From a virus (Duplodnaviria; Heunggongvirae; Uroviricota; Caudoviricetes), in the IMG/VR virus record IMGVR_UViG_3300012286_000299, positions 109,277-173,276 of that record: 64,000 nucleotides of DNA. One strand, given 5' to 3'. Shown here piece by piece: positions 8,379-64,000 of the stretch. The notes under the pieces were generated by a model that was not told the origin of the DNA, searched no databases, and worked only from the letters and a program-made list of their open reading frames with translations. The position numbers and the translations under genes are program-made. Numbering within the stretch: the stretch's first letter is position 1; every line of letters begins with the position of its first letter.

Positions 8379-8413
8379 AATAAATTTTGTATATTAAATA
8401 AAAAATAAAAGTT

Positions 8414-10747: not shown

Positions 10748-10803
10748 TATCATTTGGATATTAAAATAGAATTTATTACATTTACCTATTAAAAAAATTA
10801 TAA

Positions 10804-16075: not shown

Positions 16076-16076
16076 T

Positions 16077-25044: not shown

Positions 25045-25102
25045 TTAGATAAGATAAGTTTTCCATTGGGTACATATATTTATTATCATAAATACGTACC
25101 TA

Positions 25103-25774: not shown

Positions 25775-25797
25775 TTATTATATTAAAATAAAAAAAA

Positions 25798-27105: not shown

Positions 27106-27106
27106 A

Positions 27107-27559: not shown

Positions 27560-27562
27560 TAT

Positions 27563-30322: not shown

Positions 30323-30324
30323 AA

Positions 30325-31871: not shown

Positions 31872-31877
31872 AAAATT

Positions 31878-33618: not shown

Positions 33619-33619
33619 T

Positions 33620-35189: not shown

Positions 35190-36384
35190 ATTTAATATAA
35201 GCAATATATCAGTTGTTGTACCAAGTTACAATAATTTAGAATACCTTAAATCTTTATATAAATCAGTTAGACAAGTTTCATCTGAAATTGAATTAATAAT
35301 GTTTAGTGATGGTTCAACTGATGGGACTAAAGAATGGTTAGAACAATTAAATGATTCTAATTCAATAATAAAATGTTATAATGAAAGAAAGGGACATACC
35401 TTATTATATGATGAAGGATTTTTATTAGCAACTAAAGAAATCATAGGTATATTACATGCTGATATGATTGTAAATAAGAATTTCTTTAATTCTATTATAA
35501 AACATATTGCTACTAATAATATAGTTTGTGGAACGTGTATAGAACCACCTTTACACCCACCTGGAGGAGAAAAACATATATTAGATCTTGGAATGTATCC
35601 TAATGAATTCAATGAGGATAAATTTAATAGTTTTTGTAATGATAAAGATGTAAATCAAATATCCGAAGGTATATTTGCTCCTTGGTTTTTACTTAAAGAT
35701 GATTATATATCAAAAATAGGTAAACATGATATTATATATGCTCCTTATGGATACGAAGATAGTGATCTATTTACTAGAATGGCTTTAGCTAATTTTAATT
35801 TTATACAAAGTAGAGATGCTTTTGTATATCATTTTACTCAAAGAGGTCATAAATGGACTAAAGGAGTAGGGATAGAAAATAATGATTATCAGTATCAAAT
35901 GGGTAAAACTCGAAAAGAATATATTAGAAAGTTTGGGAGTGATCCTAAATTTGATTTTAATCATAAACCTACCCCTTCACCTAAATATAATATTGCTTAT
36001 GTAGTTAAACATGCAAACATGCAAATAGTAGAAGTATTAGAACCTTGGTGTGATAGACTTTATATTGAAGACAGTATGCAAGTGATTACAGATTCTTATA
36101 GAGAAAAAGAACAACTAAATACCAAGTTTGATTTATCAAAAAGAGTTCTTACATTGGAGTATAATGATCCAAAAGGAGAGAATGACATCGTAGTAGAATT
36201 TGATGCAAAACAATTTACAAATGCCGATTTTGCTTTCTTACAAAGACTTCCTGAGATTATAAAAGATAATGGAGATATAGGTGAATTTGAATTTGATATA
36301 TTTAAAATAACTATCAATTCAATGACTGAATACCAAAATGATTTAATTTATTTTGATAAAAATAATATTTATATTAAAACATAA
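35179..36384 (+). CDS. glycosyltransferase family 2
   Basis: ISVVVPSYNNLEYL ... MFSDGSTDGT, the canonical GT2 N-terminus and DxD block. Confidence 0.6.
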   Translation: MENKFNISNISVVVPSYNNLEYLKSLYKSVRQVSSEIELIMFSDGSTDGTKEWLEQLNDSNSIIKCYNERKGHTLLYDEGFLLATKEIIGILHADMIVNKNFFNSIIKHIATNNIVCGTCIEPPLHPPGGEKHILDLGMYPNEFNEDKFNSFCNDKDVNQISEGIFAPWFLLKDDYISKIGKHDIIYAPYGYEDSDLFTRMALANFNFIQSRDAFVYHFTQRGHKWTKGVGIENNDYQYQMGKTRKEYIRKFGSDPKFDFNHKPTPSPKYNIAYVVKHANMQIVEVLEPWCDRLYIEDSMQVITDSYREKEQLNTKFDLSKRVLTLEYNDPKGENDIVVEFDAKQFTNADFAFLQRLPEIIKDNGDIGEFEFDIFKITINSMTEYQNDLIYFDKNNIYIKT

Positions 36385-37535: not shown

Positions 37536-38192
37536 ATGGGAACTAGAGGTAAAGCCCCTAAAATTTACTCTAAGGAAGATTTGTTACGTTCAATGAAGGT
37601 TACTAAGAGTATCAGAGCAGCTGCTCGATACTTAAACTGTTCATATCAACATATTAAACCTTATTTTAAATCATATCGAGTTGATGACAACGATCCCAAC
37701 TCGCCTACATTATTTGATGTTCATAAAAATCAATTAGGTAAAGGTATTCCTAAATTCCTAAAACATCATGGTAAAGACCCGGATTTACAGAAAATACTAA
37801 CAGGAGAGTTATACACTGAATCATTTAGTATAGACAAATTCAAACGTCGTTTAATTCAGGAAGCTATATTAGCTGAAGAATGTGTTTGTTGTGGATTTAA
37901 AGAACAACGTGTATCAGATTATAGAGTACCCTTATTAATTAATTTTAAAAATGGGAATAAACGAGATTGGAAACGAGAAAATTTAGAATTTCTTTGTTAT
38001 AACTGTTACTTCTTAACAATTGGAGATGTGTTTACTAAAAAACAAACACAGGATATTGAAGATTATAATGAGGGGTATAAAGCAAATCAGGTAACTTGGG
38101 AATTAGATGAATATGCTGAAGAGCATTTCCGTTCACTAGGGTTAATTGATACTCCAAATGAAGAAGATGACTTTGTTTCTTATAATAGATAA
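37536..38192 (+). CDS. putative HNH-like / zinc-finger nuclease or DNA-binding protein
   Basis: C-terminal CVCCGF...NFKNGNKRDW...LCYNCY (C-x2-C ... N ... C-x2-C, an HNH-like scaffold lacking the canonical His). Possible N-terminal HTH. Confidence 0.3.
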   Translation: MGTRGKAPKIYSKEDLLRSMKVTKSIRAAARYLNCSYQHIKPYFKSYRVDDNDPNSPTLFDVHKNQLGKGIPKFLKHHGKDPDLQKILTGELYTESFSIDKFKRRLIQEAILAEECVCCGFKEQRVSDYRVPLLINFKNGNKRDWKRENLEFLCYNCYFLTIGDVFTKKQTQDIEDYNEGYKANQVTWELDEYAEEHFRSLGLIDTPNEEDDFVSYNR

Positions 38193-50910: not shown

Positions 50911-51546
50911 ATGGAAACCAAGGAATGTAAAGTTTGTAAAAATGAAAAAACATTAAATAATTTTAGTAAAAATCAAAAATCTATTGATGGGTTACATTAT
51001 AAATGTAAGGAATGTGTTAAAGAATATAATAAACATCATTACCAAAATAATGAGGAATCTATTAAAAATTATCACCAAAAATGGAGAGAAGATAATTTTA
51101 GTTATTTTAAAGATTACTATCAAAATAATGAGGAATACCTTAAAGGTAAAAATAAAGATTGGAGAGAAAATAATAAGGAAATGTTTAAAAATTATCAAAA
51201 AAACTATTCTAAATATAGGTTACAAAATGATCCTGTTTTTAAATTCAAATTTAATGTTAGAAATTTAATCAAGGGGTCTTTTAAAAGAGCTTGTAATGGT
51301 TTATTTCCTAAAACAGCAAAATCTATAGATATATTAGGATGTAATTTTGAATATTTTATTCAACATATACAATCTCAATTTACAGAAGGTATGACTTTAG
51401 AAAATTATGGTAAATGGCATTTAGACCATATTATACCCATATCAAAAGCACAAACCGAGGAAGATATTATAAAATTAAATCATTATACTAATTTTCAACC
51501 CTTATGGGCTATTGATAATTTAAAAAAAGGAAATAAAATTAAATAA
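50911..51546 (+). CDS. HNH homing-type endonuclease
   Basis: Cys4 N-terminus (CKVCKNEK...CKECVKEY) and an HNH core HLDHIIPISKA...NFQPLWAIDNLKKGNK. Paralog of 13540..14085. Confidence 0.65.
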   Translation: METKECKVCKNEKTLNNFSKNQKSIDGLHYKCKECVKEYNKHHYQNNEESIKNYHQKWREDNFSYFKDYYQNNEEYLKGKNKDWRENNKEMFKNYQKNYSKYRLQNDPVFKFKFNVRNLIKGSFKRACNGLFPKTAKSIDILGCNFEYFIQHIQSQFTEGMTLENYGKWHLDHIIPISKAQTEEDIIKLNHYTNFQPLWAIDNLKKGNKIK

Positions 51547-51553: not shown

Positions 51554-51730
51554 ATGACTGAAAGAAAACAAATTATTCAGCAAGTAAAAGAGTTAGGTAT
51601 CAAAACTGATAAACCTGCTCATATGTGCACTACATCTTATCTTAAAGGGTTATTACCTAAAGAAGAAGTTAAACAAGAAGAAGTTAAAATTGGGTTTTTT
51701 AAGAAGGTTTTAAGAGGATTAGGCTTTTAA
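51554..51730 (+). CDS. small protein with a Rho-N/SAP-like N-terminal domain
   Basis: 58-aa ORF. MTERKQIIQQVKELGIKTDKPAHMCTTSYLKGLL parallels the N-terminus of the 59038 gene (MNRIEIIAEVKKLGLTTEKPAHQCKTDYLQQVL). Confidence 0.35.
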   Translation: MTERKQIIQQVKELGIKTDKPAHMCTTSYLKGLLPKEEVKQEEVKIGFFKKVLRGLGF

Positions 51731-52575: not shown

Positions 52576-52579
52576 TAAT

Positions 52580-52625
52580 AAAGGGCCTGGAATAGGGCCC
52601 TTTAAATTTTCTTCGTATATTTAAT
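52580..52625 (+). promoter_or_regulatory. terminator hairpin (aaagggcc-tggaatag-ggcccttt) fused to promoter-like ttcttcgtatatttaat
   Basis: GC-rich stem right after the stop, with the motif upstream of the ATG at 52638. Confidence 0.55.
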
Positions 52626-52637
52626 AAAATAAAGGTT

Positions 52638-53075
52638 ATGACAAGAATTAATGCATTCATACCAGTTGAGGATTTATCAAACAAACATTTGATAGCTGAA
52701 CACAGAGAGATAAAACGTATACCTAATCACGTAGCTAAACATTTTAGTAAAATGTCTCTATCAAAAATACCTAAACAATTTACGCTTAATACTGGTCACG
52801 TTACTTTCTTCTTTGATAAAGGGCAATTTACCTATGAAAGGTATAAGCAGCTTTATGAAGAGTGTAAAAAAAGAGGGTTCAATATCACTTATTATGGACA
52901 TGCTTGGGATGTTTATAAAGATAAACCTGATGTTTGGAATAAAGATTTAAACGTAACATCACAAGAAAAAATACGCATACAAACCCTAATTAAAGATAGA
53001 ATTAGGAGTAATGAAAAAATAGCCCTTGAAAAAAAGTTAGCAAAAAAGTTAAGTAAATCTATTTTGGATTTATAA
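52638..53075 (+). CDS. denV: pyrimidine-dimer DNA glycosylase (T4 endonuclease V / DenV family)
   Basis: MTRINAFIPVEDLSNKHLIAEHREIKRIP...GHVTFFFDKGQFTYERYKQLYEECKKRGFNI parallels T4 EndoV (MTRINLTLVSEL..HLMAEYRELPRV...GHVTFFYDK...CLKRGFNI), including the N-terminal Thr2 and the catalytic Glu region. Confidence 0.85.
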   Translation: MTRINAFIPVEDLSNKHLIAEHREIKRIPNHVAKHFSKMSLSKIPKQFTLNTGHVTFFFDKGQFTYERYKQLYEECKKRGFNITYYGHAWDVYKDKPDVWNKDLNVTSQEKIRIQTLIKDRIRSNEKIALEKKLAKKLSKSILDL

Positions 53076-53116
53076 AATAATCTTCGTATATTTAATTATA
53101 ATTAAAAATAAAGGTT

Positions 53117-53350
53117 ATGACATCACAAATGAATGAATACCATACTACTTTAAATAAGGTAGAAGAAATTATCACAATGTTAAGAAGTTTAACTCATAAA
53201 GGTGATTGTGTTGATGGAGAGACAATGCAATACATACTTGAACAGGTAGGTATGCAAGACCAAATGTTAAGACAACTAATGATGTCTATGCCTTATGATG
53301 AGGTTGAGTACATAATGGAAGAAAGAGCAATCTTTGAAAACAATAAGTAA
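53117..53350 (+). CDS. hypothetical protein
   Basis: 77-aa ORF; promoter motif upstream. Confidence 0.4.
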   Translation: MTSQMNEYHTTLNKVEEIITMLRSLTHKGDCVDGETMQYILEQVGMQDQMLRQLMMSMPYDEVEYIMEERAIFENNK

Positions 53351-53625
53351 TGATAGTAGAACTATACACAATAGCATTTCCACATAATGGGGAAATAGTG
53401 TCTGAATTACACACATTCGATTCAGAAGATGAAAGTGATTTATTTGCTGTAATAGAGTATTTGGAAGAAGATGGAATTGATAGAGATGAAATGTCTCAAG
53501 ATGAATTTGAAACTGCTTGTAGAAAATGGTTATTTGAAGATGAAGTAGCATCTTGGGGACAAGCATTTGTTAATTGCATAGTTGTAACTAAAGAACAGTT
53601 AAAAAGAATTAAAAATATACAATAA
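53350..53625 (+). CDS. hypothetical acidic protein
   Basis: 91-aa ORF. Confidence 0.4.
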   Translation: MIVELYTIAFPHNGEIVSELHTFDSEDESDLFAVIEYLEEDGIDRDEMSQDEFETACRKWLFEDEVASWGQAFVNCIVVTKEQLKRIKNIQ

Positions 53626-53628
53626 GCT

Positions 53629-53991
53629 ATGGATAATAATTGGAAACCCGGAGACATTGGTATTTGTATCAATACAGGAAAACTACCTCATCAAAAAAAT
53701 GGTACAAACTTACCACCATTAAGACTTAAGGCAGAATATCTAGTTCAAAATGTTTCAAATTGTGGATGTGGTCTAATAGTGTTAGATGTAGGTTTTGGCT
53801 TAACTGACGGCAAAGGTGTAAATTGTAGTTGTGGAGCAACTACATCACCAGCAACCGGAATTAGATGGATAGCAGCTGAAAGATTAGTTAAGAAACAAAC
53901 TAAAAGTGAAATTGAATCGCAAATTGAAGAAGCAGTTGCTAATGAAAATTATGAGTTAGCTCCGGAATTAACAAAAAAATTAGAACAATAA
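53629..53991 (+). CDS. hypothetical protein
   Basis: 120-aa ORF. Confidence 0.4.
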   Translation: MDNNWKPGDIGICINTGKLPHQKNGTNLPPLRLKAEYLVQNVSNCGCGLIVLDVGFGLTDGKGVNCSCGATTSPATGIRWIAAERLVKKQTKSEIESQIEEAVANENYELAPELTKKLEQ

Positions 53992-53997
53992 AAGGTT

Positions 53998-54396
53998 ATG
54001 AAAAGAGTAATAGTTAAGTACAAAGATAGTGAACAAACACTAATTTATCACATTGTTAGTTTTAAAAACGACAAACGTCAAATTCTAGTTGAGGATGTAA
54101 AAGAATTCTTAGCAAACCCAAGAGTAGAATCATACGAAATCATAGACATGTCAGGGCGATCATCGAATTCTGATGGTGAAGGTAAAGTATACGAATCGAA
54201 GTACGAACGGGAAAATAATAACTTACCTAAAATAATCGCTAATGAGGTAATACAAGTTGCTACATCATTAAAAGGTTGTACTAAGGAAACCATTGATAAA
54301 TGGAACCAACATCTTGATTTTGACTTACATGAAAAGTTAAATGGTGAATACGGTTTTACAGGCGCCAAAAGATTATATAATATCTTTGGATTGTAA
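53998..54396 (+). CDS. hypothetical protein
   Basis: 132-aa ORF. Confidence 0.4.
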   Translation: MKRVIVKYKDSEQTLIYHIVSFKNDKRQILVEDVKEFLANPRVESYEIIDMSGRSSNSDGEGKVYESKYERENNNLPKIIANEVIQVATSLKGCTKETIDKWNQHLDFDLHEKLNGEYGFTGAKRLYNIFGL

Positions 54397-54436
54397 AATA
54401 TAACTTCGTATATTAAAGCATAATTAAAATATAAAT

Positions 54437-54550
54437 TATGAAAGATTTTGCAGATTGCGGGTTTTATTTTGCAATGGGATGTTGTCTCTTTGCTTGTGGT
54501 GTAATGGTGAGTGCACTAATTTTTAGAATGTTTAAAGATTTATTTAGATA
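54437..54550 (+). CDS. hypothetical small membrane peptide
   Basis: About 38 aa (MKDFADCGFYFAMGCCLFACGVMVSALIF...) behind a promoter motif. Coordinates approximate. Confidence 0.25.
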
Positions 54551-54552
54551 AT

Positions 54553-54669
54553 TATGAGTTTAGTAAGTAATTGTTGTGGTGCGTATTCAGAATATGCTGA
54601 GGACATAGACATTTGTCCTGATTGTCTTGAACATTGTGAATTCGAAGATGATGAAGAAGATGAAGATTA
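54553..54669 (+). CDS. hypothetical small Cys-rich acidic peptide
   Basis: About 38 aa, CCGAY...CPDCLEHCEFEDDEEDED. Coordinates approximate. Confidence 0.25.
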
Positions 54670-54729
54670 AATAAATTTGTTTTATTAAAATTTACTTAGT
54701 ATATTAAATCATAATTAAAATAATAAGTT

Positions 54730-54933
54730 ATGTTTAAAACGGAAAAAGCAAGAGATTTATTTAGTCAATTATTGGATGTTAATTGGAAAATTGACAATAA
54801 AGAATATCGTTCACCTGAAGAACGAATTGAATTGAATGCCCAATACCGTAAGTTATATGATGAACTTATGTTAGAGATGGGTACAGAAGAGTTCACCAAA
54901 TTCATGGAAATGGGTCACAAATTGTTTAATTAA
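54730..54933 (+). CDS. hypothetical protein
   Basis: 67-aa ORF; promoter motif upstream. Confidence 0.4.
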   Translation: MFKTEKARDLFSQLLDVNWKIDNKEYRSPEERIELNAQYRKLYDELMLEMGTEEFTKFMEMGHKLFN

Positions 54934-54943
54934 AATAAAGGTT

Positions 54944-55132
54944 ATGATATTACAGGTAATTAACACCAAAAAGGAAAAACACAATCAAATTCGTACAACT
55001 AAGGAAACTTTATTTCAAGACCTTAAAACTCAAGGTTGGGCAGTCCAAGATTGTAAAGTAACAGAACTAAATGAGGCTTTAGTAAACACTGTATATCGTG
55101 GTACTGATGGTAAAAATTCATTAAAACGTTAA
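54944..55132 (+). CDS. hypothetical protein
   Basis: 62-aa ORF. Confidence 0.4.
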   Translation: MILQVINTKKEKHNQIRTTKETLFQDLKTQGWAVQDCKVTELNEALVNTVYRGTDGKNSLKR

Positions 55133-55135
55133 AAT

Positions 55136-55288
55136 ATGGTAGTATTATTAGCACAACTTGTATTAATGGGTATAAATTTATATCTAGCAAAAGTACAAAC
55201 AGAACAGGGTAGAAATCCAGCAATACAATATTTTGTTGCAGGAATGTGTTTTATGGGTGCAATTGATGCACTTATTAAATTACTTTAG
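55136..55288 (+). CDS. hypothetical small membrane protein
   Basis: 50-aa ORF with two hydrophobic segments. Confidence 0.3.
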   Translation: MVVLLAQLVLMGINLYLAKVQTEQGRNPAIQYFVAGMCFMGAIDALIKLL

Positions 55289-55297
55289 TAAGGCAAT

Positions 55298-55367
55298 AGT
55301 CAGGTAGTGTAATGGTAGCACCCGGAGGTCACACTTCTAGAACAGGTTCGAATCCTGTCCTGACTAC
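55298..55367 (+). tRNA. tRNA-like gene 1 (anticodon not confidently assigned; possibly CAC)
   Basis: Perfect 7-bp acceptor stem AGTCAGG/CCTGACT, D-arm GTGT-AATGGTA-GCAC with a GG D-loop, and a canonical T-arm ACAGG-TTCGAAT-CCTGT. The anticodon stem is irregular by hand folding. Confidence 0.5.
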
Positions 55368-55482
55368 AAAGTAATGCCTGGCGAAGTTGTCAAAACCGGG
55401 ATGAAGCAGAATTGTAAATAAAACACGCGAGTGTATAATGACAGATGGGATACACAAAAGTTACAATTAGAATTACTTAAAC

Positions 55483-55582
55483 AGTCAGGTGGCACTGAAG
55501 GTAGAGTGCTCCATAAAATAAGCAATAAGTGGTAATATGGTACCAATACTTATAGCCTTAGGTTCGAATCCTGTCCTGACTA
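55483..55582 (+). tRNA. tRNA-like gene 2, about 100 nt (long variable arm or intervening hairpin)
   Basis: Same acceptor strands AGTCAGG/CCTGACT, D-arm GCAC-TGAAGGTAGA-GTGC, T-arm TTAGG-TTCGAAT-CCTGT, and an internal long hairpin TAAGTGGTA-ATATGG-TACCAATACTTA. Confidence 0.4.
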
Positions 55583-55638
55583 CTATAACAATATAAGTGT
55601 TTCATAACCACTTATTATTTTTAATTATGCCCGTAATT

Positions 55639-55700
55639 AGCCCCGAAAGGGGCTATTACTTTATTTGGAGGGTATAAATTAAATTCGTATATTTATTACA
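55639..55700 (+). promoter_or_regulatory. terminator hairpin (agcccc-gaaa-ggggct) followed by promoter-like gagggtataaattaaattcgtatattt
   Basis: GC-rich stem-loop plus the conserved motif downstream of the tRNA-like genes. Confidence 0.5.
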
Positions 55701-55711
55701 AATAAAATAAA

Positions 55712-55849
55712 ATGAAAGTAGTACAATTCACATTACAGGAAAGATGGGCTGCATCAAAGCACATGGTTCAAAAGAACAAGAAAAAATACAATAGGGAAAA
55801 AGATAAAAGAGAAAATAGGGAGGCTGGTAAGTCTCCTTACTTCATTTAA
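55712..55849 (+). CDS. hypothetical small basic protein
   Basis: About 45-aa ORF behind the motif. Confidence 0.25.
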   Translation: MKVVQFTLQERWAASKHMVQKNKKKYNREKDKRENREAGKSPYFI

Positions 55850-55932
55850 TATATTTATAAGGGTCCTTATTTAGTTTCTTTGAGTGTTTAAAACTAATTC
55901 GTATATTAAAGTATAATTAAAAAATAAAGGTT

Positions 55933-56202
55933 ATGAATAAAATTGAAATAGAAGGTAAAGTTTATGAGCAAATTGAACAAAAATCTTCTAATAATGGGGT
56001 AAGTAAAAAAATGCTAGGAATGTTAGCTATGGCACAAGCTATGTATAACTTATCTTTTGGTGGTTCCAATTATAGCCGACAAAGACCCTCTGTAAATATA
56101 GTTGAAGAGTTCCGACTAATACAACAAAAGAAAAGTAAATTAAATCGTTCTGATAGGGACTGGGTTATATATCAATTTAATAGAAATTTTAAAGAAGTAT
56201 AA
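55933..56202 (+). CDS. hypothetical protein
   Basis: 89-aa ORF with promoter motif 55894-55920 upstream. Confidence 0.45.
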   Translation: MNKIEIEGKVYEQIEQKSSNNGVSKKMLGMLAMAQAMYNLSFGGSNYSRQRPSVNIVEEFRLIQQKKSKLNRSDRDWVIYQFNRNFKEV

Positions 56203-56206
56203 GGTT

Positions 56207-56524
56207 ATGAATTTAGATTTTGACTTAATTAGAAGTGAGGTATTAGTAGCACGTAAGGAAGATAGTCCTAACGATTGCCCTTCCACAAATGTTGAAGAAC
56301 TTTCTGAAAATATAAAATATTTACTTGAAGAGCTTCCTATAATGAATTTATCTAATATTGAAGACCTCGATGAGGATGAATTCAGTTTATTTGATGATTA
56401 CTTTGAGGATGAACAATTCTGGATATTGATTTGGAAAGGCAGAACATTCTTTGTAGATACTCAAGGGTATTCCTATGCAAGATATTGTGGTGAATTAATT
56501 AATTATAATGAAGTTGAGGGTTAA
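56207..56524 (+). CDS. hypothetical acidic protein
   Basis: 105-aa ORF. Confidence 0.45.
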   Translation: MNLDFDLIRSEVLVARKEDSPNDCPSTNVEELSENIKYLLEELPIMNLSNIEDLDEDEFSLFDDYFEDEQFWILIWKGRTFFVDTQGYSYARYCGELINYNEVEG

Positions 56525-56566
56525 AATTAACTTAGTATATTAAAGTATATTAATAATTAAAAAGTT

Positions 56567-56761
56567 ATGGCAAGTAAGATATTAATGTATAATGATGTAA
56601 CCGGGGAAGTAGTAGCTACTACTGCTAGTCTTGAAGGGCATAAGTTTGCAAACTTCATTGAAAAAGGATTTAAACCTATTTGTATAGCTTACCCTGTAAG
56701 TTACTCAGTAGCTGTAGAATCCTATACTGAAGAAAAACATGTAAGGTTAACTAAAAAATAA
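56567..56761 (+). CDS. hypothetical protein
   Basis: 64-aa ORF with promoter motif 56528-56560. Confidence 0.4.
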   Translation: MASKILMYNDVTGEVVATTASLEGHKFANFIEKGFKPICIAYPVSYSVAVESYTEEKHVRLTKK

Positions 56762-56765
56762 GATT

Positions 56766-56927
56766 ATGACACAATTTGAAAAAAATTCTTTATCAATAGC
56801 AAAAGAACTAATTGAATTAAAATTTAAGGTTCAAGTTATTGCAATAGATTTTGAAGATGGTTCGGGAAGAAATTTTATTGTAACTACAAAGGATAATCCT
56901 TTAAAGAAAAGATTTGTTAAATTTTAA
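56766..56927 (+). CDS. hypothetical small protein (MTQFEKN... paralog pair, copy 1)
   Basis: About 53-aa ORF. Its N-terminus MTQFE is shared with the next ORF. Coordinates approximate. Confidence 0.3.
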   Translation: MTQFEKNSLSIAKELIELKFKVQVIAIDFEDGSGRNFIVTTKDNPLKKRFVKF

Positions 56928-56935
56928 ATAAGGTT

Positions 56936-57100
56936 ATGACACAGTTTGAAGAAAACAACCCTAAGGAATTAAAGAAATTTATTTCCGAGTTAGACAATCT
57001 TATAGATGAATTTCACCCTAACATATATCTAATTGATGATGTGTTTAAAGGGGTAGAAATTATAAGAAACGCTATTAAGGAAGTGATTGCTGAGAAATAA
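56936..57100 (+). CDS. hypothetical small protein (MTQFEEN... paralog pair, copy 2)
   Basis: About 54-aa ORF. Coordinates approximate. Confidence 0.3.
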   Translation: MTQFEENNPKELKKFISELDNLIDEFHPNIYLIDDVFKGVEIIRNAIKEVIAEK

Positions 57101-57136
57101 CTTCGTATATTTAAGCATAATTAAAATAATAAAGTT

Positions 57137-57382
57137 ATGGCAAGAGGAGAAGGAACAATTACCTATGATGGTGTAGAAATTGATATTGAATTCCAATATG
57201 AACCTTTAGTAAGAGGTAGAATGTGGATGGACAATGGTGACCCAGGTTACCCTGATGAAGGAGGTGAATTCTATATTGAAAAAGCATTCATTGGAGGGCA
57301 AGATGTAACTGATTTACTTGGTGAAGACAAGCTAGAATCAATAGCTGAAGCCTATCAAGAAAAACATGGTGGGGAATATTAA
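57137..57382 (+). CDS. hypothetical protein
   Basis: 81-aa ORF with promoter motif 57099-57125. Confidence 0.45.
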   Translation: MARGEGTITYDGVEIDIEFQYEPLVRGRMWMDNGDPGYPDEGGEFYIEKAFIGGQDVTDLLGEDKLESIAEAYQEKHGGEY

Positions 57383-57446
57383 TTCCCTGTCGTGTTTATT
57401 ATAAATTTACCTCGTATATTAAAGCATAATTAAAATAAGAAAAGTT

Positions 57447-57842
57447 ATGAGTGCTGAATCAATTAAAATTGCATTTATTAAATTAAATGCTGCTGATAAA
57501 ATTAAAGTAAGGGCTTATATAAAATCCCTTAGTGAATCTTATAAGAAACCACCCTTAAAAGTTAAGGAATATAAAGTTAATACTATAACGGGTGCACTCA
57601 AACATACCCTATCCTCAATGGGGTGTGATATTGAAAATAAATATACATTTTCAGATAATCGTACCATTGGAATCAGTGTTAAAATATGTAACTTAAAACT
57701 TACAAAATCCCAGGAACAAGAAGTGAAATCTAAAATGGAAAACTTGGGGTACACTTACCACAGTATAAAAAGACCTTCACATAATCATGGTTCACCATAT
57801 TATAGAGATACTTTTAAGGGTACAAGATTTCATTTTTCTTAA
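57447..57842 (+). CDS. hypothetical protein
   Basis: 131-aa ORF with promoter motif 57401-57430. Confidence 0.45.
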   Translation: MSAESIKIAFIKLNAADKIKVRAYIKSLSESYKKPPLKVKEYKVNTITGALKHTLSSMGCDIENKYTFSDNRTIGISVKICNLKLTKSQEQEVKSKMENLGYTYHSIKRPSHNHGSPYYRDTFKGTRFHFS

Positions 57843-57859
57843 AATAGTTAAGGTATAGT

Positions 57860-57897
57860 GAGGTATAAATTAACTTCGTATATTAAGGCATAATTAA
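57860..57897 (+). promoter_or_regulatory. extended conserved element gaggtataaattaacttcgtatattaaggcataattaa
   Basis: About 40-nt element recurring with 90% or greater identity at 58224, 58583, 59809, 60680, 61138, 61584, 61902 and 62683. Confidence 0.55.
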
Positions 57898-57913
57898 TTA
57901 AAACATTAATATA

Positions 57914-58222
57914 ATGGATTACGGAAAAAAGTATTTCACTAACAACAATAAATTTGGTGTTGGTAGAGTTGAGACAATGAGGTTAGTTAATCAACCTGAA
58001 ATTTTGAATTTCATAACTCACAATCCTGGAAGAACAGAACTACAAATTATGGAGCAGTTGTATAATTACCCTAATTATGTAGGTATATTTCAGGAAAGTA
58101 ATAAAAAGTATGCTGACCGATTAAGAGCATTACTTCATAGTGGGAAAATATCCCGAGTTAAAGCTAGAACCATAGATGGGCCTCGTTTTATATATTTCTC
58201 AATATATGAGAAAAAGGCATAG
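57914..58222 (+). CDS. hypothetical protein
   Basis: 102-aa ORF. Confidence 0.45.
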   Translation: MDYGKKYFTNNNKFGVGRVETMRLVNQPEILNFITHNPGRTELQIMEQLYNYPNYVGIFQESNKKYADRLRALLHSGKISRVKARTIDGPRFIYFSIYEKKA

Positions 58223-58274
58223 TAAGGTATAAATTAACTTCGTATATTAAGGCATAATTAAAATATTAAATGTT

Positions 58275-58571
58275 ATGAGTAAGTATGTAGAATTAATGAA
58301 TAACCCACCTAAATTAACTATTAAGGAGGGTGCTCGAGAAGTAGTGTTTAAAACCATAGCAAGTATGTGTGATAATGTTCACTACATTACATTCAAGAAA
58401 AATAATGAAGGTGACTTCAAAATGAGCGGTAATGGGTTTTCACTCTCAAACTGGGGAATGAAACATACACCTCAAGAGATTGAGTGGGAAGCAGATGAAA
58501 ACCTATGGGGAGGGGTTATTGCAATGGTTAATTCAGGTTATGAAGTTATTGAATCTGTAGTAAGTAGATAA
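58275..58571 (+). CDS. hypothetical protein
   Basis: 98-aa ORF. Confidence 0.45.
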   Translation: MSKYVELMNNPPKLTIKEGAREVVFKTIASMCDNVHYITFKKNNEGDFKMSGNGFSLSNWGMKHTPQEIEWEADENLWGGVIAMVNSGYEVIESVVSR

Positions 58572-58637
58572 TAAGGCATTTTGAGGTATAAATTAACTTC
58601 GTATATTAAAGTATAATTAAAATAAATAATTAAGGTT

Positions 58638-58952
58638 ATGACAAAAACACAAACAGTAGACTTATTAAAAAGTCAATTGCCAGGATTTTATTCCGCAGAA
58701 CAAGTAATCAATCTAATTGAGAAGATGGAGGACACTCCAAAAATTACTCAGGAACACATTAAAGAAATTGCAAGAAGTATCATGAATGATATTGAAAGCG
58801 AGGCACAAAGAGGTCACATTGTCAGTAATGACGAGGTTGAATTTGACTTAAGACACAGAGAAATTGAAGTGACTGACGTTCCAATTAACTTTGATACCAT
58901 CAGAGAGTGTATTGAAGAAGGTCTATCAAATGCCTTTGAAGAAGAAGAATAA
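58638..58952 (+). CDS. hypothetical acidic protein
   Basis: 104-aa ORF. Confidence 0.45.
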   Translation: MTKTQTVDLLKSQLPGFYSAEQVINLIEKMEDTPKITQEHIKEIARSIMNDIESEAQRGHIVSNDEVEFDLRHREIEVTDVPINFDTIRECIEEGLSNAFEEEE

Positions 58953-59037
58953 ATCAAGGTAGTTGAGGGACAAAAATAAATTCGTATATTTAAAACATAT
59001 TAATAATAAAAAAGTTTAATTTTAAAATTTAAAGGTT

Positions 59038-59499
59038 ATGAACAGAATTGAAATCATTGCAGAAGTAAAAAAATTAGGTTTAACAACAGAAAAACCTGCG
59101 CACCAATGTAAAACTGATTACTTACAACAAGTATTAGATGCACACTATGCAACTAGTGTTGAAGTAAAACAGAAAGGTAGACCTGTGAATGAAAACAGTG
59201 AACGCCAAAAACGACTTGCTGAATTAGAAGCAAAACGTGAAGCAGGTGAACTACGTAAAGGTAGACCAGTAGTGGAAGGTAGTGCTCGTCAAGTGAGATT
59301 ATCACTTAAAGGTACATTGCCATTAGGTAGAAAACCAAATCCTGAAAGCGCTGCTTACAAACGTAAAATGGAATTGGAAGCAAAACGTGCTGCGGGTGAA
59401 CTAAAAAGAGGTAGACCAGCACAAGTAAAAGAAGCAGCTGAACCAGTAGCAGCTCAAGTAGAAGCGCCTGCAGCAGCAGAGCCACAAACTGAAGTATAA
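59038..59499 (+). CDS. DNA-binding protein with three AT-hook motifs and a Rho-N/SAP-like N-terminal domain
   Basis: KGRPVNEN, KGRPVVEG and RGRPAQVK (AT-hook GRP cores flanked by basic residues), with an Ala/Glu-rich tail. The gene has locally elevated GC. Confidence 0.5.
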   Translation: MNRIEIIAEVKKLGLTTEKPAHQCKTDYLQQVLDAHYATSVEVKQKGRPVNENSERQKRLAELEAKREAGELRKGRPVVEGSARQVRLSLKGTLPLGRKPNPESAAYKRKMELEAKRAAGELKRGRPAQVKEAAEPVAAQVEAPAAAEPQTEV

Positions 59500-59568
59500 G
59501 AATTAATTACAGAAAAGGGACATGACGATTAGTTATGTCCCTTACTTTAACCCTTAATCAGTATATAT

Positions 59569-59805
59569 TTGAAAAGACATACAGTAATTAGCAAAAAATA
59601 TGTTGAAACCTACAAAAATTACCCTAAAGCAAAACCCAAACCACAATATATAATTGGGTGTGTTTATTATGGAAGAAACCGCTCAAATCATTTAAAATTA
59701 GGCATACTAACCTTATTTGGTGATAGGGTATCAACTTTAAAAACTAAAGATGGTAAATTGGTTAAAGTTAAAAATAACACTCTAAAAAGCGCTCAAACAG
59801 GGTAG
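59569..59805 (+). CDS. hypothetical basic protein
   Basis: 78-aa ORF, duplicated identically at 60440..60676. Confidence 0.4.
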   Translation: MKRHTVISKKYVETYKNYPKAKPKPQYIIGCVYYGRNRSNHLKLGILTLFGDRVSTLKTKDGKLVKVKNNTLKSAQTG

Positions 59806-60055
59806 TTTGAGGTATAATTTAACTTCGTATATTAAAGTATAATTAATAAATACATTATTATGGTAAAAGTAGTTAAATCAGGCATCACATATTATGAGGT
59901 AAATTTAGGTAGTATATCTCTAATTGCATTTGAACCACAGGAATTAGTTATTAGCAACAGAAAAACCTGCGCACCAATGTAAAACTGATTACTTACAACA
60001 AGTATTAGATGCACACTATGCAACTAGTGTTGAAGTAAAACAGAAAGGTAGACCT

Positions 60056-60370
60056 GTGAATGAAAACAGTGAACGCCAAAAACGACTTGCTGAATTAGAA
60101 GCAAAACGTGAAGCAGGTGAACTACGTAAAGGTAGACCAGTAGTGGAAGGTAGTGCTCGTCAAGTGAGATTATCACTTAAAGGTACATTGCCATTAGGTA
60201 GAAAACCAAATCCTGAAAGCGCTGCTTACAAACGTAAAATGGAATTGGAAGCAAAACGTGCTGCGGGTGAACTAAAAAGAGGTAGACCAGCACAAGTAAA
60301 AGAAGCAGCTGAACCAGTAGCAGCTCAAGTAGAAGCGCCTGCAGCAGCAGAGCCACAAACTGAAGTATAA
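60056..60370 (+). pseudogene. 5'-truncated second copy of the AT-hook gene (lacks the original start and N-terminal domain)
   Basis: Identical to the 3' 417 nt of 59038..59499. The track ORF uses an internal Met. Confidence 0.5.
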
Positions 60371-60439
60371 GAATTAATTACAGAAAAGGGACATGACGAT
60401 TAGTTATGTCCCTTACTTTAACCCTTAATCAGTATATAT

Positions 60440-60676
60440 TTGAAAAGACATACAGTAATTAGCAAAAAATATGTTGAAACCTACAAAAATTACCCTAAAG
60501 CAAAACCCAAACCACAATATATAATTGGGTGTGTTTATTATGGAAGAAACCGCTCAAATCATTTAAAATTAGGCATACTAACCTTATTTGGTGATAGGGT
60601 ATCAACTTTAAAAACTAAAGATGGTAAATTGGTTAAAGTTAAAAATAACACTCTAAAAAGCGCTCAAACAGGGTAG
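60440..60676 (+). CDS. hypothetical basic protein (duplicate copy of 59569..59805)
   Basis: 100% identical to 59569..59805. Confidence 0.4.
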   Translation: MKRHTVISKKYVETYKNYPKAKPKPQYIIGCVYYGRNRSNHLKLGILTLFGDRVSTLKTKDGKLVKVKNNTLKSAQTG

Positions 60677-60864
60677 TTTGAGGTATAATTTAACTTCGTA
60701 TATTAAAGTATAATTAATAAATACATTATTATGGTAAAAGTAGTTAAATCAGGCATCACATATTATGAGGTAAATTTAGGTAGTATATCTCTAATTGCAT
60801 TTGAACCACAGGAATTAGTTATTAGAATGGTAAACATGAATATATCACTAAACTAATAAAGGTT

Positions 60865-61128
60865 ATGACGGAAAAATCAACTCAACAAGCGGCAAACGTT
60901 GCCAAAATAGGATTAATTATTTTATGGGCGGCATTCATGTATTCCCTAACATCATGTGGTTCACAATGTTCAAGAACAAAACGTTATTGGAGAAACCATA
61001 GATGTGTCGAGGTGAAAACCCAAAAATCAATCAACAGGGCAAGAAGATCATTGGATAGAAGAATACAATCAGCACAACAACAGTATGCTATTGTCAACAA
61101 TGAAATCATAATGTTTGAAAATTATTAG
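60865..61128 (+). CDS. hypothetical protein with an N-terminal transmembrane segment
   Basis: 87-aa ORF. Confidence 0.4.
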   Translation: MTEKSTQQAANVAKIGLIILWAAFMYSLTSCGSQCSRTKRYWRNHRCVEVKTQKSINRARRSLDRRIQSAQQQYAIVNNEIIMFENY

Positions 61129-61192
61129 TGGTCGTTTGAGGTATAAATTTACTTCGTATATTTAAGCATATTAATAATTAAAATATAATGTT

Positions 61193-61375
61193 ATGAAATT
61201 TAATGGTTTTGAAAAGTACTTAATTATACAAGGGTTAAATATAGTTAAGGAACAAGCTAAAACTGAAATACGTGAAGCTATAGCCAAAGGTGAAATGCCT
61301 ATTATGACGGAAGATTTCATTGATATAACTGTGAAAGAAGCCCTAGACAAATTAAATAAATTAACTGTAGAATAA
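61193..61375 (+). CDS. hypothetical protein
   Basis: 60-aa ORF with promoter motif 61138-61180. Confidence 0.4.
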   Translation: MKFNGFEKYLIIQGLNIVKEQAKTEIREAIAKGEMPIMTEDFIDITVKEALDKLNKLTVE

Positions 61376-61377
61376 TT

Positions 61378-61563
61378 ATGGTAGCTAAAGTAAGAGAATA
61401 CTTCAGACAAAACTATGGACACGTGTACTTTGATGACATTAGTGATTCATTTATTGAAGAATACATGTCACGTTCCTACGTAGTCTCATTATCATTTGAA
61501 ATGCAAATGGACTGTTTGTATGATGCAGTCATGTCACAATCAATGGTTGATTATGACGAATAA
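61378..61563 (+). CDS. hypothetical protein
   Basis: 61-aa ORF. Confidence 0.4.
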   Translation: MVAKVREYFRQNYGHVYFDDISDSFIEEYMSRSYVVSLSFEMQMDCLYDAVMSQSMVDYDE

Positions 61564-61634
61564 AAAATTAATTATGGTATGTGAGGGTTAAATATAACCT
61601 CGTATATTTAAGTATAATTAATAAATAAAACATC

Positions 61635-61901
61635 ATGACAAAAGAGGAATTTATAGCAGGAACACCGTTCTATGTAGGTAAAAAAAGATACAGAGGTGAA
61701 TCAACACACTATTATGACCCAAAAATAGGTTGTATTTGTAAACAAAATAGATCTTCGGCCGATGAAAGAATTGTACTTGAAGATTATGCTTGCAATATTA
61801 AAAAAGTAGGTAGATTAGGGTTCGAAGGGTTCACTCATGTAATGAATAAACAAGTGAATGTTAAATATAAATTTGAGCATTTGAGTGTATTTGAGGGTTA
61901 A
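61635..61901 (+). CDS. hypothetical protein
   Basis: 88-aa ORF with promoter motif 61584-61620. Confidence 0.45.
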   Translation: MTKEEFIAGTPFYVGKKRYRGESTHYYDPKIGCICKQNRSSADERIVLEDYACNIKKVGRLGFEGFTHVMNKQVNVKYKFEHLSVFEG

Positions 61902-61950
61902 GATTAGCTTCGTATATTAAGGTATAATTAATAATAAAAACATAAAGGTT

Positions 61951-62316
61951 ATGAAAAAAGTTGTAAAAAAAGCATCACAGGTTAAGGTATCTATTACCCA
62001 CAAAACATTAATGGTGAATTTCGAGTTCCCAATTGTAGTAGGACAAGTTAAGATAATTGCTATTGGTCTAGCTCATGTTTATAAGGGTGATGAATCAGGA
62101 CAAATTGAAGCAGATATCGATTTTATGGATTATGGGGAAACAACCTATATGGACATGCCTGTTGAGGGGTATGAGGGTGTGAAAAAGTTAAAGGAAATGC
62201 ACAAAGGATTTGGTATTGACTTAGGTACCCTAATTGATAATGAATTCAATAAGGTTGTAACAGAGGAATTCAAAACCGAATTCCTAAAACAATTCGACGT
62301 TAGAATGTTTGAATAA
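61951..62316 (+). CDS. hypothetical protein
   Basis: 121-aa ORF with promoter motif 61902-61940. Confidence 0.45.
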   Translation: MKKVVKKASQVKVSITHKTLMVNFEFPIVVGQVKIIAIGLAHVYKGDESGQIEADIDFMDYGETTYMDMPVEGYEGVKKLKEMHKGFGIDLGTLIDNEFNKVVTEEFKTEFLKQFDVRMFE

Positions 62317-62323
62317 TAAAAAT

Positions 62324-62376
62324 AAGCCCCGGAATGGGGCTTATAAATTTTACTTCGTATATTTAAGTATAATTAA
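62324..62376 (+). promoter_or_regulatory. terminator hairpin (agcccc-ggaat-ggggct) fused to promoter-like tacttcgtatatttaagtataattaa
   Basis: Same terminator-promoter architecture as elsewhere in the window. Confidence 0.55.
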
Positions 62377-62387
62377 AAATTAAGGTT

Positions 62388-62705
62388 ATGTTAAATACAA
62401 CTTATTTAGGAAGAGAAATCACTAGACGTGATAATGTTAAAGTAGAAGGTACATTCCAATCATTTTATGAGGCATCAAAACGTTTGATGGGGATGGGTTA
62501 TATAATGGGAAGCATGTGTGGAGATGAACCAATAGGGTTTGCCGATGCAGACAAATACGAGTATATTGCCAAATGGAGAAACATTGACCCGAGCGATAGA
62601 GTAAAAGTGGACGGGGTAATGATCAGTAGTGACTGGAGAGAGGGTAGTGTTGAAATAATATGGTTTAAAGAGCCATTAAATAAGGCAGTAGCGGGTATAA
62701 ATTAA
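62388..62705 (+). CDS. hypothetical protein
   Basis: 105-aa ORF. Confidence 0.45.
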   Translation: MLNTTYLGREITRRDNVKVEGTFQSFYEASKRLMGMGYIMGSMCGDEPIGFADADKYEYIAKWRNIDPSDRVKVDGVMISSDWREGSVEIIWFKEPLNKAVAGIN

Positions 62706-62742
62706 CTTCGTATATTGAGGTATAATTAAAAAAGTAAACGTT

Positions 62743-63087
62743 ATGGTAAAAGAAATTACTGCAATAGATAAACTGATTGCTATTGAGGAAATGCTTGTTA
62801 AAATGAGGTATGACACTACAGGAATGAGTGTGAGCCAAGCACTGGAAATAATGAAGGCAACGGTAAAGGCTATTGATAAAGCAAAATTACCCTCAAACAC
62901 GATTTACCCTATGACACGAGACGATTTATACAAAATAATGGATTCAGAAAACTATACGGTGGACGAGATCAAAGATTCAGTGTATATGGGGAACAGAATA
63001 ACCACTATATTGGAGAATGAGGACGTGGAGATAGATGACGAACAGGTAAAGGTGTTGGTGGTAGAGTACCAAAATGCTAGAGCATAG
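62743..63087 (+). CDS. hypothetical protein
   Basis: 114-aa ORF with promoter motif 62683-62719. Confidence 0.45.
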   Translation: MVKEITAIDKLIAIEEMLVKMRYDTTGMSVSQALEIMKATVKAIDKAKLPSNTIYPMTRDDLYKIMDSENYTVDEIKDSVYMGNRITTILENEDVEIDDEQVKVLVVEYQNARA

Positions 63088-63370
63088 TAATGTTAAACCA
63101 TTCCAATATCTAAAGATATCGTAATGTGGAAACTTATTCCTAGTATATTGGGGTAACGGACAAATGTTCCGGCGGTAACGCTTAATAGTATAGTTGTATG
63201 TGGAAATTGGGTTAAATTGGGGTGGATAATAGGGCAGGGTCTCCGCTCCCCTGCCCCGTTATGGAATAACTTTCCTCCCTACCTCCCTTGTATATACAAT
63301 TTTTAATGGAACTAGGTGGAACAAATCAACTTCGTATATTATAGTATATTAATAATTAAACAACTATATT

Positions 63371-63553
63371 ATGATAAAGTTTGAGGTTTACCCAAGTGTT
63401 AGATTACAAGCACACCAATTGTTAATCAATTCGAACCGTTTGAAAAGTGTATTTTATAATACTGGAAATACTTTCCTAATTGACCCCGTTGATTTACCTC
63501 GTTGTAAGGAAATACTTACCAAACGAATGATTAAATTAAAGGTAGTTAATTAA
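63371..63553 (+). CDS. hypothetical protein
   Basis: 60-aa ORF with promoter motif 63327-63359. Confidence 0.4.
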   Translation: MIKFEVYPSVRLQAHQLLINSNRLKSVFYNTGNTFLIDPVDLPRCKEILTKRMIKLKVVN

Positions 63554-63618
63554 GGTAATAGGGGAATAAAAATCCCTTCGTATATTATAGTATAATAAAA
63601 AATATAAAATTAAAGGTT

Positions 63619-63855
63619 ATGAAAGCTAAAGTACAAATTAAATCAGTGTTCGAACAAATTGCAGGTAAAGTATTTACCATGACCAATGTTACCCAAGCCA
63701 AAGAGTATATCACTGAATTTATTACCAGTAAAGGTATTGATGGTACCGACAAACAAACCATCGTTAATAACGTTAATAAATGTACCTCAATTGCACAACT
63801 ACAACGTTACGTGTGTAATTCATTATTAATGTATGAGGGTATGGGTATCAGTTAA
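63619..63855 (+). CDS. hypothetical protein
   Basis: 78-aa ORF with promoter motif 63562-63600. Confidence 0.45.
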   Translation: MKAKVQIKSVFEQIAGKVFTMTNVTQAKEYITEFITSKGIDGTDKQTIVNNVNKCTSIAQLQRYVCNSLLMYEGMGIS

Positions 63856-63885
63856 TACCCCGCTATTACCCACATTCCCACCGCA

Positions 63886-63936
63886 GGGACCCAGGCTTTA
63901 CAGCCCCGGGTCCCTTCTTTGTTTTTCTTTCCCTTT
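63886..63936 (+). terminator. strong GC-rich intrinsic terminator
   Basis: 7-bp GC stem gggaccc...gggtccc with a 15-nt loop, followed by a T-rich tract ttctttgtttttctttccctttt. Confidence 0.6.
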
Positions 63937-64000
63937 TCGTCCGAATTCGGTCCGCATGCGGATCGGCACGGGTTGCCCACGCGGCGTTGCTGTCCATAAA

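Follow-up and report, generated by a model that had tools for sequence, protein, structure and literature searches.

A probable array of promoter-early stem-loop-like cassettes in the accessory-gene region of an uncultured, distantly T4-like phage lineage

What organizes a dense run of small genes without assigned function in a phage genome, and does such a run mark a region of early host takeover? The question is raised by a stretch of 64,000 nucleotides (nt), here called the window, which spans positions 109,277 to 173,276 of the metagenomic contig IMGVR_UViG_3300012286_000299 (173,276 bp; Caudoviricetes), codes wholly on its plus strand and has ~30% G+C. A first-pass annotation of this DNA described an 11-kb array of about 35 small open reading frames (ORFs), each with its own copy of a conserved promoter. 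That census was close: we count 36 plus-strand ORFs of 37-153 amino acids (aa) between 52638 and 63855, three of which are copies that arise from an exact 871-bp tandem duplication. We think that the array is probably the densest part of a hyperplastic accessory-gene region, built of 22 promoter cassettes that resemble the promoter-early stem-loops (PeSLs) of T4-type phages.

The conserved promoter unit that had been proposed is borne out by counts. Exact copies of its core, TTCGTATATT, number 28 in the window where 0.23 would be expected, and every one is on the plus strand; with one mismatch allowed there are 43 copies against 11.4 expected. When the one-mismatch variants (TTAG-, CTCG- and TTTG-) are included, 22 core copies lie in the array and 13 elsewhere in the window. 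Twelve of the latter are found at 1.7-4 kb and 38-52 kb; the thirteenth, a weak one-mismatch variant at 8386, is the only copy within the block of replication and sugar-metabolism genes at 4-38 kb. The core is not exclusive to the array, in which it is only densest (a copy every 0.5 kb, against every 1.2 kb). Core variants in the window differ at positions 1 and 3 only, GTATATT being invariant. All copies are intergenic and stand 26-57 nt (mostly 33-42) ahead of an ATG, and the start context AAGGTTATG occurs 21 times on the plus strand and never on the minus strand of the window. The context of all gene starts in the window is remarkably uniform (e.g. 52629-52640 and 53108-53119): A is found at -12, -6 and -5, G at -3 and TT at -2/-1, followed by ATG and an A at +4; the AAGG of this context lies only 2 nt from the ATG, where classical Shine-Dalgarno spacing would need more.

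The same cassette recurs in relatives. IMG/VR, scanned both by sequence pattern and with protein anchors, gave ~30 related loci, and ORF presence was scored in 35. About 20 IMG/VR loci bear 14-28 same-strand core copies per 10-20 kb, the distant loci L032-L035 bear none, and the core points the same way as the genes in every one of more than 330 copies. We aligned 334 distinct cassettes from the window and 18 related loci. All have the invariant core and a conserved A/T-rich spacer (tTAAAAT), aAAGTATAATTAA is conserved downstream, and the upstream element is of two kinds. In class T (93 instances), TTTGG occupies -36 to -32 and TTG lies 19 nt ahead of the core. With TATATT read as the -10 element, class T corresponds to TTGnnn-N17-TATATT, a canonical sigma-70 geometry in which TTCG would form the last four spacer bases; the pattern TTTG-N19-21-TATATT occurs 20 times on the plus strand and once on the minus strand. 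In class G (193 instances) the box AAGGAAT stands at -41 to -35 and the TTG is lacking. Both elements occur together in 13 instances only, against 193 with the GG box alone and 93 with the TTG alone. In the window and in loci L003-L028 the classes are arranged in long blocks along the genomes, and class T prevails in the window up to ~56 kb.

The earlier description gave each ORF its own promoter copy and almost every one a private terminator or promoter unit; the organization of the array is looser. The 22 promoters serve 36 ORFs, in 12 single-gene units and 10 units of two to four genes (Table 1). Private terminators are the exception: ~10 hairpins were found in all, and a GC-containing hairpin at most 70 nt upstream adjoins 7 of the 22 cassettes of the array and 12 of the 35 in the window. 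Terminator-like hairpins are enriched over 50-64 kb (17 against 5.3 expected), yet far from every unit has one. What stands of the earlier description is its architecture of independently promoted, small unassigned genes, as in an accessory or host-takeover region. What falls is the claim of paralog pairs: the likeness of the two MTQFE proteins (56766 and 56936) is confined to their first 8 residues (E = 0.16) and stops there, so the two are not paralogous. MT(ACA) is merely a common start in the array.

Purifying selection acts on the ORFs of the array, which are therefore genuine genes. Measured against the closest relative (locus L014, contig IMGVR_UViG_3300046010_006778), the ratio of nonsynonymous to synonymous substitution (dN/dS) is 0.06-0.31 for 17 ORFs, every one that could be tested, at dS of ~0.5 to >1. 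These include ORFs of 38 and 45 aa and the TTG-start g59569, whose conservation and low ratio mark it as a real gene; g54554, g54730 and g54944 are conserved with ratios of 0.06-0.21, and g53998 has 82% aa identity to L014 and a ratio of 0.17. The same genes turn over rapidly. Nine of the 36 have no homologue in the 35 related loci, and most of the rest are limited to 1-10 of them. In 90%-identity clustering g53998 and g62388 stay singletons, against 135 members for the family B DNA polymerase (PolB) and 146 for the GroEL-like chaperonin. The DenV gene, g53350/g53629 and the blocks 55933-57100 and 57447-58571 are absent from L014, which has additional genes inserted and carries g61951 elsewhere. 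Since no related locus has DenV, we regard it as a cassette gained in this phage. Most ORFs of 60731-63855 have homologues in relatives (44-82% aa identity), in a different order.

The ends of homology blocks bear on how such turnover proceeds. They fall inside promoter-to-ATG cassettes, which make up 13.6% of the region, in 14 of 30 cases for L014 (P = 1e-5) and 10 of 24 for L016 (P = 7e-4). This enrichment is what recombination at repeats predicts; it is supportive, not proof, because selection to keep genes intact contributes too, as does the fact that the cassettes are themselves conserved.

Composite motifs of this kind have a precedent. PeSLs are promoter/terminator motifs found upstream of ORFans in the hyperplastic regions of T4-type phages, where they serve as strong early promoters and lie at the junctions at which related phages differ by insertion, deletion or replacement (PMC2839356, PMC4122927). 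In phi1/RB49, their promoter and terminator activity and the formation of mini-circles, encapsidated products of recombination between neighbouring cassettes, were shown experimentally (Arbiol et al. 2010, PMC2839356; Comeau et al. 2014, PMC4122927). In both systems a repeated composite motif ends in a ribosome-binding context and start codon, is concentrated in the variable parts of a T4-like genome, where it precedes small ORFans (here 22 copies in 11.3 kb of ORFans), and bounds indels and replacements between relatives, at intergenic junctions that selection also favours. In both, a few copies also stand close to replication genes, and this phage shares a bicistronic DNA polymerase with some T4-likes. 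There are differences too. The TTG or AAGGAAT box and TTCG-TATATT found here take the place of the E. coli sigma-70 consensus of PeSLs; two upstream-box classes share one core; a stem-loop accompanies only about one-third of cassettes; and this lineage is only ~30% identical to T4-likes in PolB. As to the strong sigma-70-like promoter of PeSLs, class T has the geometry TTG-N17-TATATT, and block-B (the form at 57.8-63.6 kb) and class G cassettes have no well-spaced -35. Cassettes that do have a hairpin (e.g. 52579-52621 and 62322-62363) resemble classical PeSLs. The array appears PeSL-like in three of four testable respects, namely promoter-like architecture, location and breakpoints. Because two-thirds of the cassettes lack the stem-loop, we call it a PeSL-like variant and not a member of the group.

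Taken together, these features suggest how the array may work. Each cassette has, in order, an upstream box, an A/T-rich spacer with tTAAAAT, and the core, read here as TTCG and the -10 hexamer TATATT; the conserved start region aAAGTATAATTAA follows, then a leader of ~20 nt ending in AAAGGTTATG, one to four small ORFs and, in about one-third, a hairpin. As strong promoters, the cassettes would uncouple the transcription of each small gene, or short gene group, from that of its neighbours. Class T would be read by the unmodified sigma-70-type RNA polymerase of the host, which would imply pre-replicative (early) expression. The ~50 bp of near-identical sequence that recurs every 0.5 kb in the same orientation would offer portable homology for recombination, so that genes could be gained, lost and reshuffled cassette by cassette, in the manner described for the PeSLs of T4-type phages. 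We infer promoter activity, the polymerase or factor that would read the cassettes, early timing (suggested by promoter geometry) and a role of the array products as accessory proteins acting on the host or its defences; such host-takeover or anti-defence roles are plausible, with no direct match in their favour.

Several points weigh against this reading. The block at 57.8-63.6 kb has AAGGNAT and TTGAGGTATAAAT, with a TTG just 15-16 nt from TATATT; as a block of a second promoter type it may depend on a further factor, and its promoters need not be immediate-early. In the window, neither the canonical TTGACA-N17-TATAAT nor the Bacteroidetes pattern TTTG/TAnnTTTG is enriched, and a Bacteroidetes-type promoter was dropped in favour of the generic TTG-N17-TATATT, since that pattern occurs once on the plus strand and five times on the minus strand; the literature on TAnnTTTG in phages yielded nothing relevant. 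The most conserved part of the cassette, TTCG together with the downstream AAGTATAAT, lies outside any standard sigma-70 consensus, so a phage-specific factor might take part. With regard to mosaicism, selection for intact genes would favour breakpoints between genes even without recombination at repeats, and BLAST alignments tend to run on into any conserved cassette. Among the 30 array ORFs searched against Pfam and PHROGs, none matches a known takeover or anti-defence family, and the stem-loop that defines PeSLs is present at only the 7 of 22 cassettes.

How, then, do other explanations fare? A lesser but real possibility is that the cassettes are promoters read by a factor that the phage encodes or modifies (MotA/AsiA-like, an alternative sigma factor or an ADP-ribosylated polymerase) at the core and/or the AAGGAAT box, so that the array, especially at 57.8-63.6 kb, would be middle or continuous in expression. 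The two near-exclusive upstream elements on one core (193 GG, 93 TTG, 13 both), their grouping in spatial blocks within genomes and the lack of a 17-nt-spaced -35 in the block-B promoters of the window all fit such a factor. So do a PARP/Alt-like ADP-ribosyltransferase gene at 47-1111 and the first block-B unit, which encodes a predicted winged-helix protein (g57914). Conservation is strongest outside the classical hexamers, although T4 early promoters are likewise conserved well past theirs. No sigma, MotA or AsiA homologue was found in the ~70 window ORFs scanned, in a search of 64 of the 173 kb. Moreover, g58638, g62388 and g63619 have block-B promoters in the window, and their orthologues in the close relative L010 have class T promoters. 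This speaks for functional interchangeability of the classes, and the upstream element is therefore exchangeable over a short evolutionary scale. If a phage factor does read AAGGAAT, we would tentatively see in the two-tier promoter code (a TTCG-TATATT core with either a TTG -35 or an AAGGAAT box near -38, in blocks) a new early-to-middle switch. That factor would be a functional analogue of MotA/AsiA unrelated to them in sequence, and might be a small ORF such as the putative winged-helix g57914; cassette exchange would then shift genes between temporal classes.

It is very unlikely that the repeat is no promoter at all, but a protein-binding or recombination site such as a lox-like half-site or a homing, partition, replication or packaging signal. 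Repeats do coincide with mosaic breakpoints, and ATAACTTCGTATA, present in several copies, is identical to one 13-bp arm of loxP. The literature matches listed for the TTCGTATATT motif looked unrelated to phage promoters and appeared to be mostly lox constructs. A lox-like site was rejected, since only one arm is present, with no inverted partner, and all of the more than 330 copies run in the direction of the genes. The distance to the start codon is fixed, each transcription unit has one copy, and the -35/-10 geometry is sigma-70-like. Pfam tyrosine-recombinase models are unmatched in ~50 window ORFs, no targeted recombinase search having been made. It is hardly credible that the array is mostly non-coding or an assembly artefact, with ORFs that are chance frames in A/T-rich DNA. 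That 35 of the 36 ORFs lack a family match would fit such an origin, as would a metagenome assembly with a perfect 871-bp tandem duplication that could be a mis-assembly. Against it, dN/dS shows purifying selection in every testable ORF and so excludes spurious ORFs; g58638 alone has 116 homologue clusters; the same genes are found on independently assembled contigs from many samples; and all ORFs lie on one strand, as does the start context AAGGTTATG.

The favoured reading of a PeSL-like array invites comparison with T4 itself, in which early promoters use host sigma-70 and the MotA/AsiA-dependent middle promoters keep the -10 and swap the -35 for a MotA box. Both phages have many highly similar promoters, strong and pre-replicative in T4 and putatively so here, that head short units of small non-essential genes, in two classes with a common downstream and a different upstream element; denV is among the pre-replicative genes of T4. 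In contrast to the MotA box at -30, the AAGGAAT box is centred near -38, no MotA or AsiA homologue was found in the ~70 window ORFs, and orthologues switch class between close relatives. Dense same-strand small genes with multiple strong promoters also occur in the T7 class I, T5 pre-early and SPO1 host-takeover modules. Those arrays belong to unrelated phage families, and their early timing and host shut-off were shown experimentally. A regular promoter cassette is not known as a feature of the ORFanage islands of cyanophages. The 'ORFanage' and other hypervariable islands of T4-like cyanophages resemble the array as clusters of small unassigned genes in a T4-like genome that are prone to gain and loss (PMC4503421). 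The layout is known in principle from T4-type phages; what is new is the promoter code and the phage lineage.

Table 1. Promoter cores, genes and other features of the array (positions in the window; all on the plus strand)
Feature	Position	Details
Core TTCGTATATT, unit 1	52612..52621	drives DenV; terminator hairpin 52579-52604 just upstream
DenV	52638..53075	pyrimidine-dimer DNA glycosylase, 145 aa; Pfam Pyr_excise (PF03013) 4.5e-13, 49.8 bits vs cut-off 23
Core, class T	53083..53092	TTG at -35, 17-nt spacer; 4-gene unit 53117-54396
Four ORFs	53117..54396	77/91/120/132 aa; g53117 in 15 related loci; g53350, g53629 without homologue in any
Core, class T	54405..54414	unit g54438 + g54554
Five ORFs	54438..55288	37 aa hydrophobic, 38 acidic Cys-rich, 67, 62, 50 hydrophobic
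Core variant TTAGTATATT	54696..54705	unit g54730, g54944, g55136, tRNA-like elements
tRNA-like gene	55298-55366	abnormally short anticodon arm; Rfam tRNA 44.8 bits; ARAGORN: undetermined type, 2-nt 'anticodon'
Second tRNA-like element	55486-55585	~100 nt; ~120 nt downstream of first; called by neither tool
Core, class T	55684..55693	unit g55712
Seven ORFs	55712..57382	45/89/105/64/53/54/81 aa; include non-paralogous MTQFE pair 56766/56936
Core, class T	55898..55907	unit g55933 + g56207
Core variant TTAGTATATT	56532..56541	TTGAGG, 16-nt spacer; unit g56567, g56766, g56936
Core	57102..57111	unit g57137
Core variant CTCGTATATT	57411..57420	unit g57447; hairpin 57371-57387 upstream
g57447	57447..57842	131 aa, basic; no homologue among related loci
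Core, block-B type	57875..57884	AAGGTAT box -41..-35, GAGGTATAAAT spacer; unit g57914
g57914	57914..58222	102 aa, basic; predicted winged helix (PadR/MarR/ScpB-like)
Core, block-B type	58239..58248	unit g58275
g58275, g58638	58275..58952	98 and 104 aa; g58638 acidic
Core, block-B type	58598..58607	unit g58638; L010 orthologue has class T promoter
Core	58981..58990	unit g59038 (+ g59569)
g59038	59038..59499	153 aa; HeH/SAP-like N-terminus + repeated (K/R)GRP AT-hook-like motifs
Exact tandem duplication	59084..60825	2 x 871 bp; 59084-59954 = 59955-60825
g59569	59569..59805	78 aa, TTG start, very basic; conserved, dN/dS 0.24
Core, block-B type	59824..59833	copy 1 within 871-bp duplication
Core, block-B type	60695..60704	copy 2 within duplication; unit g60731 + g60865
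Ten ORFs	60731..63855	41/87 lipoprotein-like/60/61/88/121/105/114/60/78 aa
Core, block-B type	61153..61162	unit g61193 + g61378
Core variant CTCGTATATT	61599..61608	unit g61635
Core	61909..61918	unit g61951, then terminator hairpin 62322-62344
Core directly after hairpin 62322-62344	62354..62363	PeSL-like composite; unit g62388
Core, block-B type	62707..62716	unit g62743
GC-rich non-coding block	63090..63300	between g62743 and next promoter; GTATATAC palindrome
Core	63331..63340	unit g63371
Core overlapping hairpin 63560-63578	63577..63586	unit g63619, last of array
Start of GC-rich conserved non-coding element	63856..64000	element ~300 nt, closes promoter array; first 145 nt in window

The genes carried by the cassettes give modest hints of function: DenV, a predicted winged helix in g57914, AT-hook-like motifs in g59038, and composition. 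DenV had been singled out as the only recognizable enzyme, and it holds that place: it also matches phrog_1183 at 4.2e-34 (residues 1-136), and the 30 other ORFs scanned have no credible Pfam or PHROGs match, known anti-restriction, anti-CRISPR and shut-off families included. Sequence searches of the PDB with g53629, g57914 and g61951 gave nothing significant. Structure prediction with Foldseek, which the first-pass annotation had proposed, was informative for one of two proteins. The AlphaFold2 model of g57914 (predicted local distance difference test, pLDDT, 75; predicted template-modelling score, pTM, 0.67) has the topology H-H-H-E-E, a three-helix bundle with a beta-hairpin wing, and Foldseek against the PDB returned many winged-helix regulators (probability 0.99-1.0, template-modelling score ~0.5, E ~0.01-0.05). 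The protein is therefore predicted to have a winged-helix fold, at fold level only, and DNA binding is putative. The model of g58638 is weak (pLDDT 70, pTM 0.40) and found no fold match; its 116 homologue clusters are all unnamed and confined to contigs of this phage lineage. Fourteen array ORFs are strongly acidic and 15 strongly basic. Two are clearly hydrophobic (g54438 and g55136), g61951 has a borderline hydrophobic stretch and g60865 a lipoprotein-like N-terminus.

The most widely conserved array gene is g59038, found in 27 of 35 loci, 23 of which it had itself fetched as query. Pfam is silent on it, and its HeH/SAP and AT-hook assignments come from our reading of the protein sequence. 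Its N-terminus (59038-59150) shares (I/V)xxVKxLG(L/I)xTxKPAHxCxTxYL with a 58-aa ORF at 51554-51730, and the common motif looks like a DNA-binding module of HeH/SAP type. The neighbouring g59569 has no TTCGTATATT cassette of its own; at its TTG start, after a hairpin at 59515-59543, lies TATATTTG (59549-59571), a perfect match to the Bacteroidetes -7 consensus. Both genes are touched by the 871-bp duplication, the source of the array's only true duplicates. It yields a second g59038 copy that is promoter-less and truncated at its N-terminus, a second g59569 copy, and an out-of-frame fusion ORF at 59860-59982. Its ends are not at promoter cassettes. The duplication is absent from four relatives, so it is either very recent or a metagenome mis-assembly.

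Non-coding elements are interspersed with these genes. The second tRNA-like element is identical to the first in both strands of the acceptor stem (AGTCAGG on the 5' side) and in the T arm, and has a long internal insert; L014 retains one such element, with a Leu-like D arm and a ~90-nt insert. Such elements may be tRNAs that contain an intron or have degenerated. A single tRNA was all that Rfam recognized when the window as a whole, the region around the tRNA and the GC-rich end were scanned. The GC-rich block at 63090-63300 contains a hairpin at 63232-63256, GGGCAGGG-N9-CCCTGCCC. The GC-rich element that closes the array has ~50-60% G+C in a 30% genome, continues in L011 (1297-1600) and recurs in L010 (5230-5490), L013 and L016; in L010 the promoter array ends exactly at the g63619 homologue, followed by the GC-rich non-coding element. 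Over its 3' 170 nt the element is better conserved in four relatives than the genes that flank it. It contains the palindrome AGATCGAAAACGATCT, which is invariant, and, immediately ahead of the next gene, TATATAC/CATATACTTATAG motifs. The element has no Rfam match, and because RNAalifold found little covariation (4 sequences) we claim no RNA structure for it. It may be a distinct regulatory region, an operator or an origin.

The remainder of the window places the phage. PolB is encoded in two cistrons (14085-15812 and 16077-17012), with best tblastn matches in T4-like phages at 28-34% identity, and the clamp loader matches phrog_168 at 4e-81. With a gp43-type family B PolB, clamp loader, ligase and DenV, the window has a replication module of distantly T4-like type; the ligase is ATP-dependent, and the window also encodes an exonuclease, thymidylate synthase, the GroEL-like chaperonin and tRNA nucleotidyltransferase. 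Megablast of the array region against GenBank phages gave zero matches, so a cultured close relative is lacking. The 90%-identity clusters of PolB and GroEL have 135 and 146 metagenomic members, on contigs of up to ~170 kb. Given these clusters and the empty GenBank search, the phage is a member of an abundant, uncultured, distantly T4-like lineage. Host searches were negative or weak: the promoter pattern had no match among 185,579 genomes, and PolB had a single 63% match, on a 2.3-kb contig binned in a gammaproteobacterial metagenome-assembled genome, which is too weak for use.

Other genes of the window were noted in passing. An 87-aa ORF sits between the PolB cistrons and an HNH/endonuclease VII-like gene lies immediately upstream (13540-17012); other HNH/NUMOD1/endonuclease VII-like genes, of homing-endonuclease type, are dispersed at 25103-25774, 37536-38192 and 50911-51546. 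About 13 kb of glycosyltransferases (GT1/GT4, GT2) and a HAD-hydrolase/nucleotidyltransferase fusion occupy 23620-36384, with zero internal TTCGTATATT promoters. The 354-aa product of 47-1111, in which Pfam recognizes the catalytic domain of a PARP-type ADP-ribosyltransferase (1e-16), recalls the T4 Alt and Mod enzymes, which modify host RNA polymerase. A 7-deazaguanine (queuosine-precursor) pathway is suggested by genes for PTPS (QueD-like), a QueE-like radical SAM enzyme and GTP cyclohydrolase at 9406-11499. Other phages use it to modify DNA against restriction, and the cluster is a more concrete anti-defence candidate than any gene in the small-ORF array.

For the biology of this lineage, our analysis extends the PeSL idea, in which regulatory cassettes also serve as linkers for recombination and so drive gene turnover, to a group of phages abundant in metagenomes and without a cultured member. 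Together with its two upstream boxes and the AAGGTTATG context, TTCGTATATT forms a lineage-wide signature by which transcription units can be delimited, relatives found in metagenomes and cargo genes listed. That cargo comprises hundreds of small genes that combine purifying selection with rapid turnover, a reasonable pool in which to screen for host-takeover and anti-defence functions.

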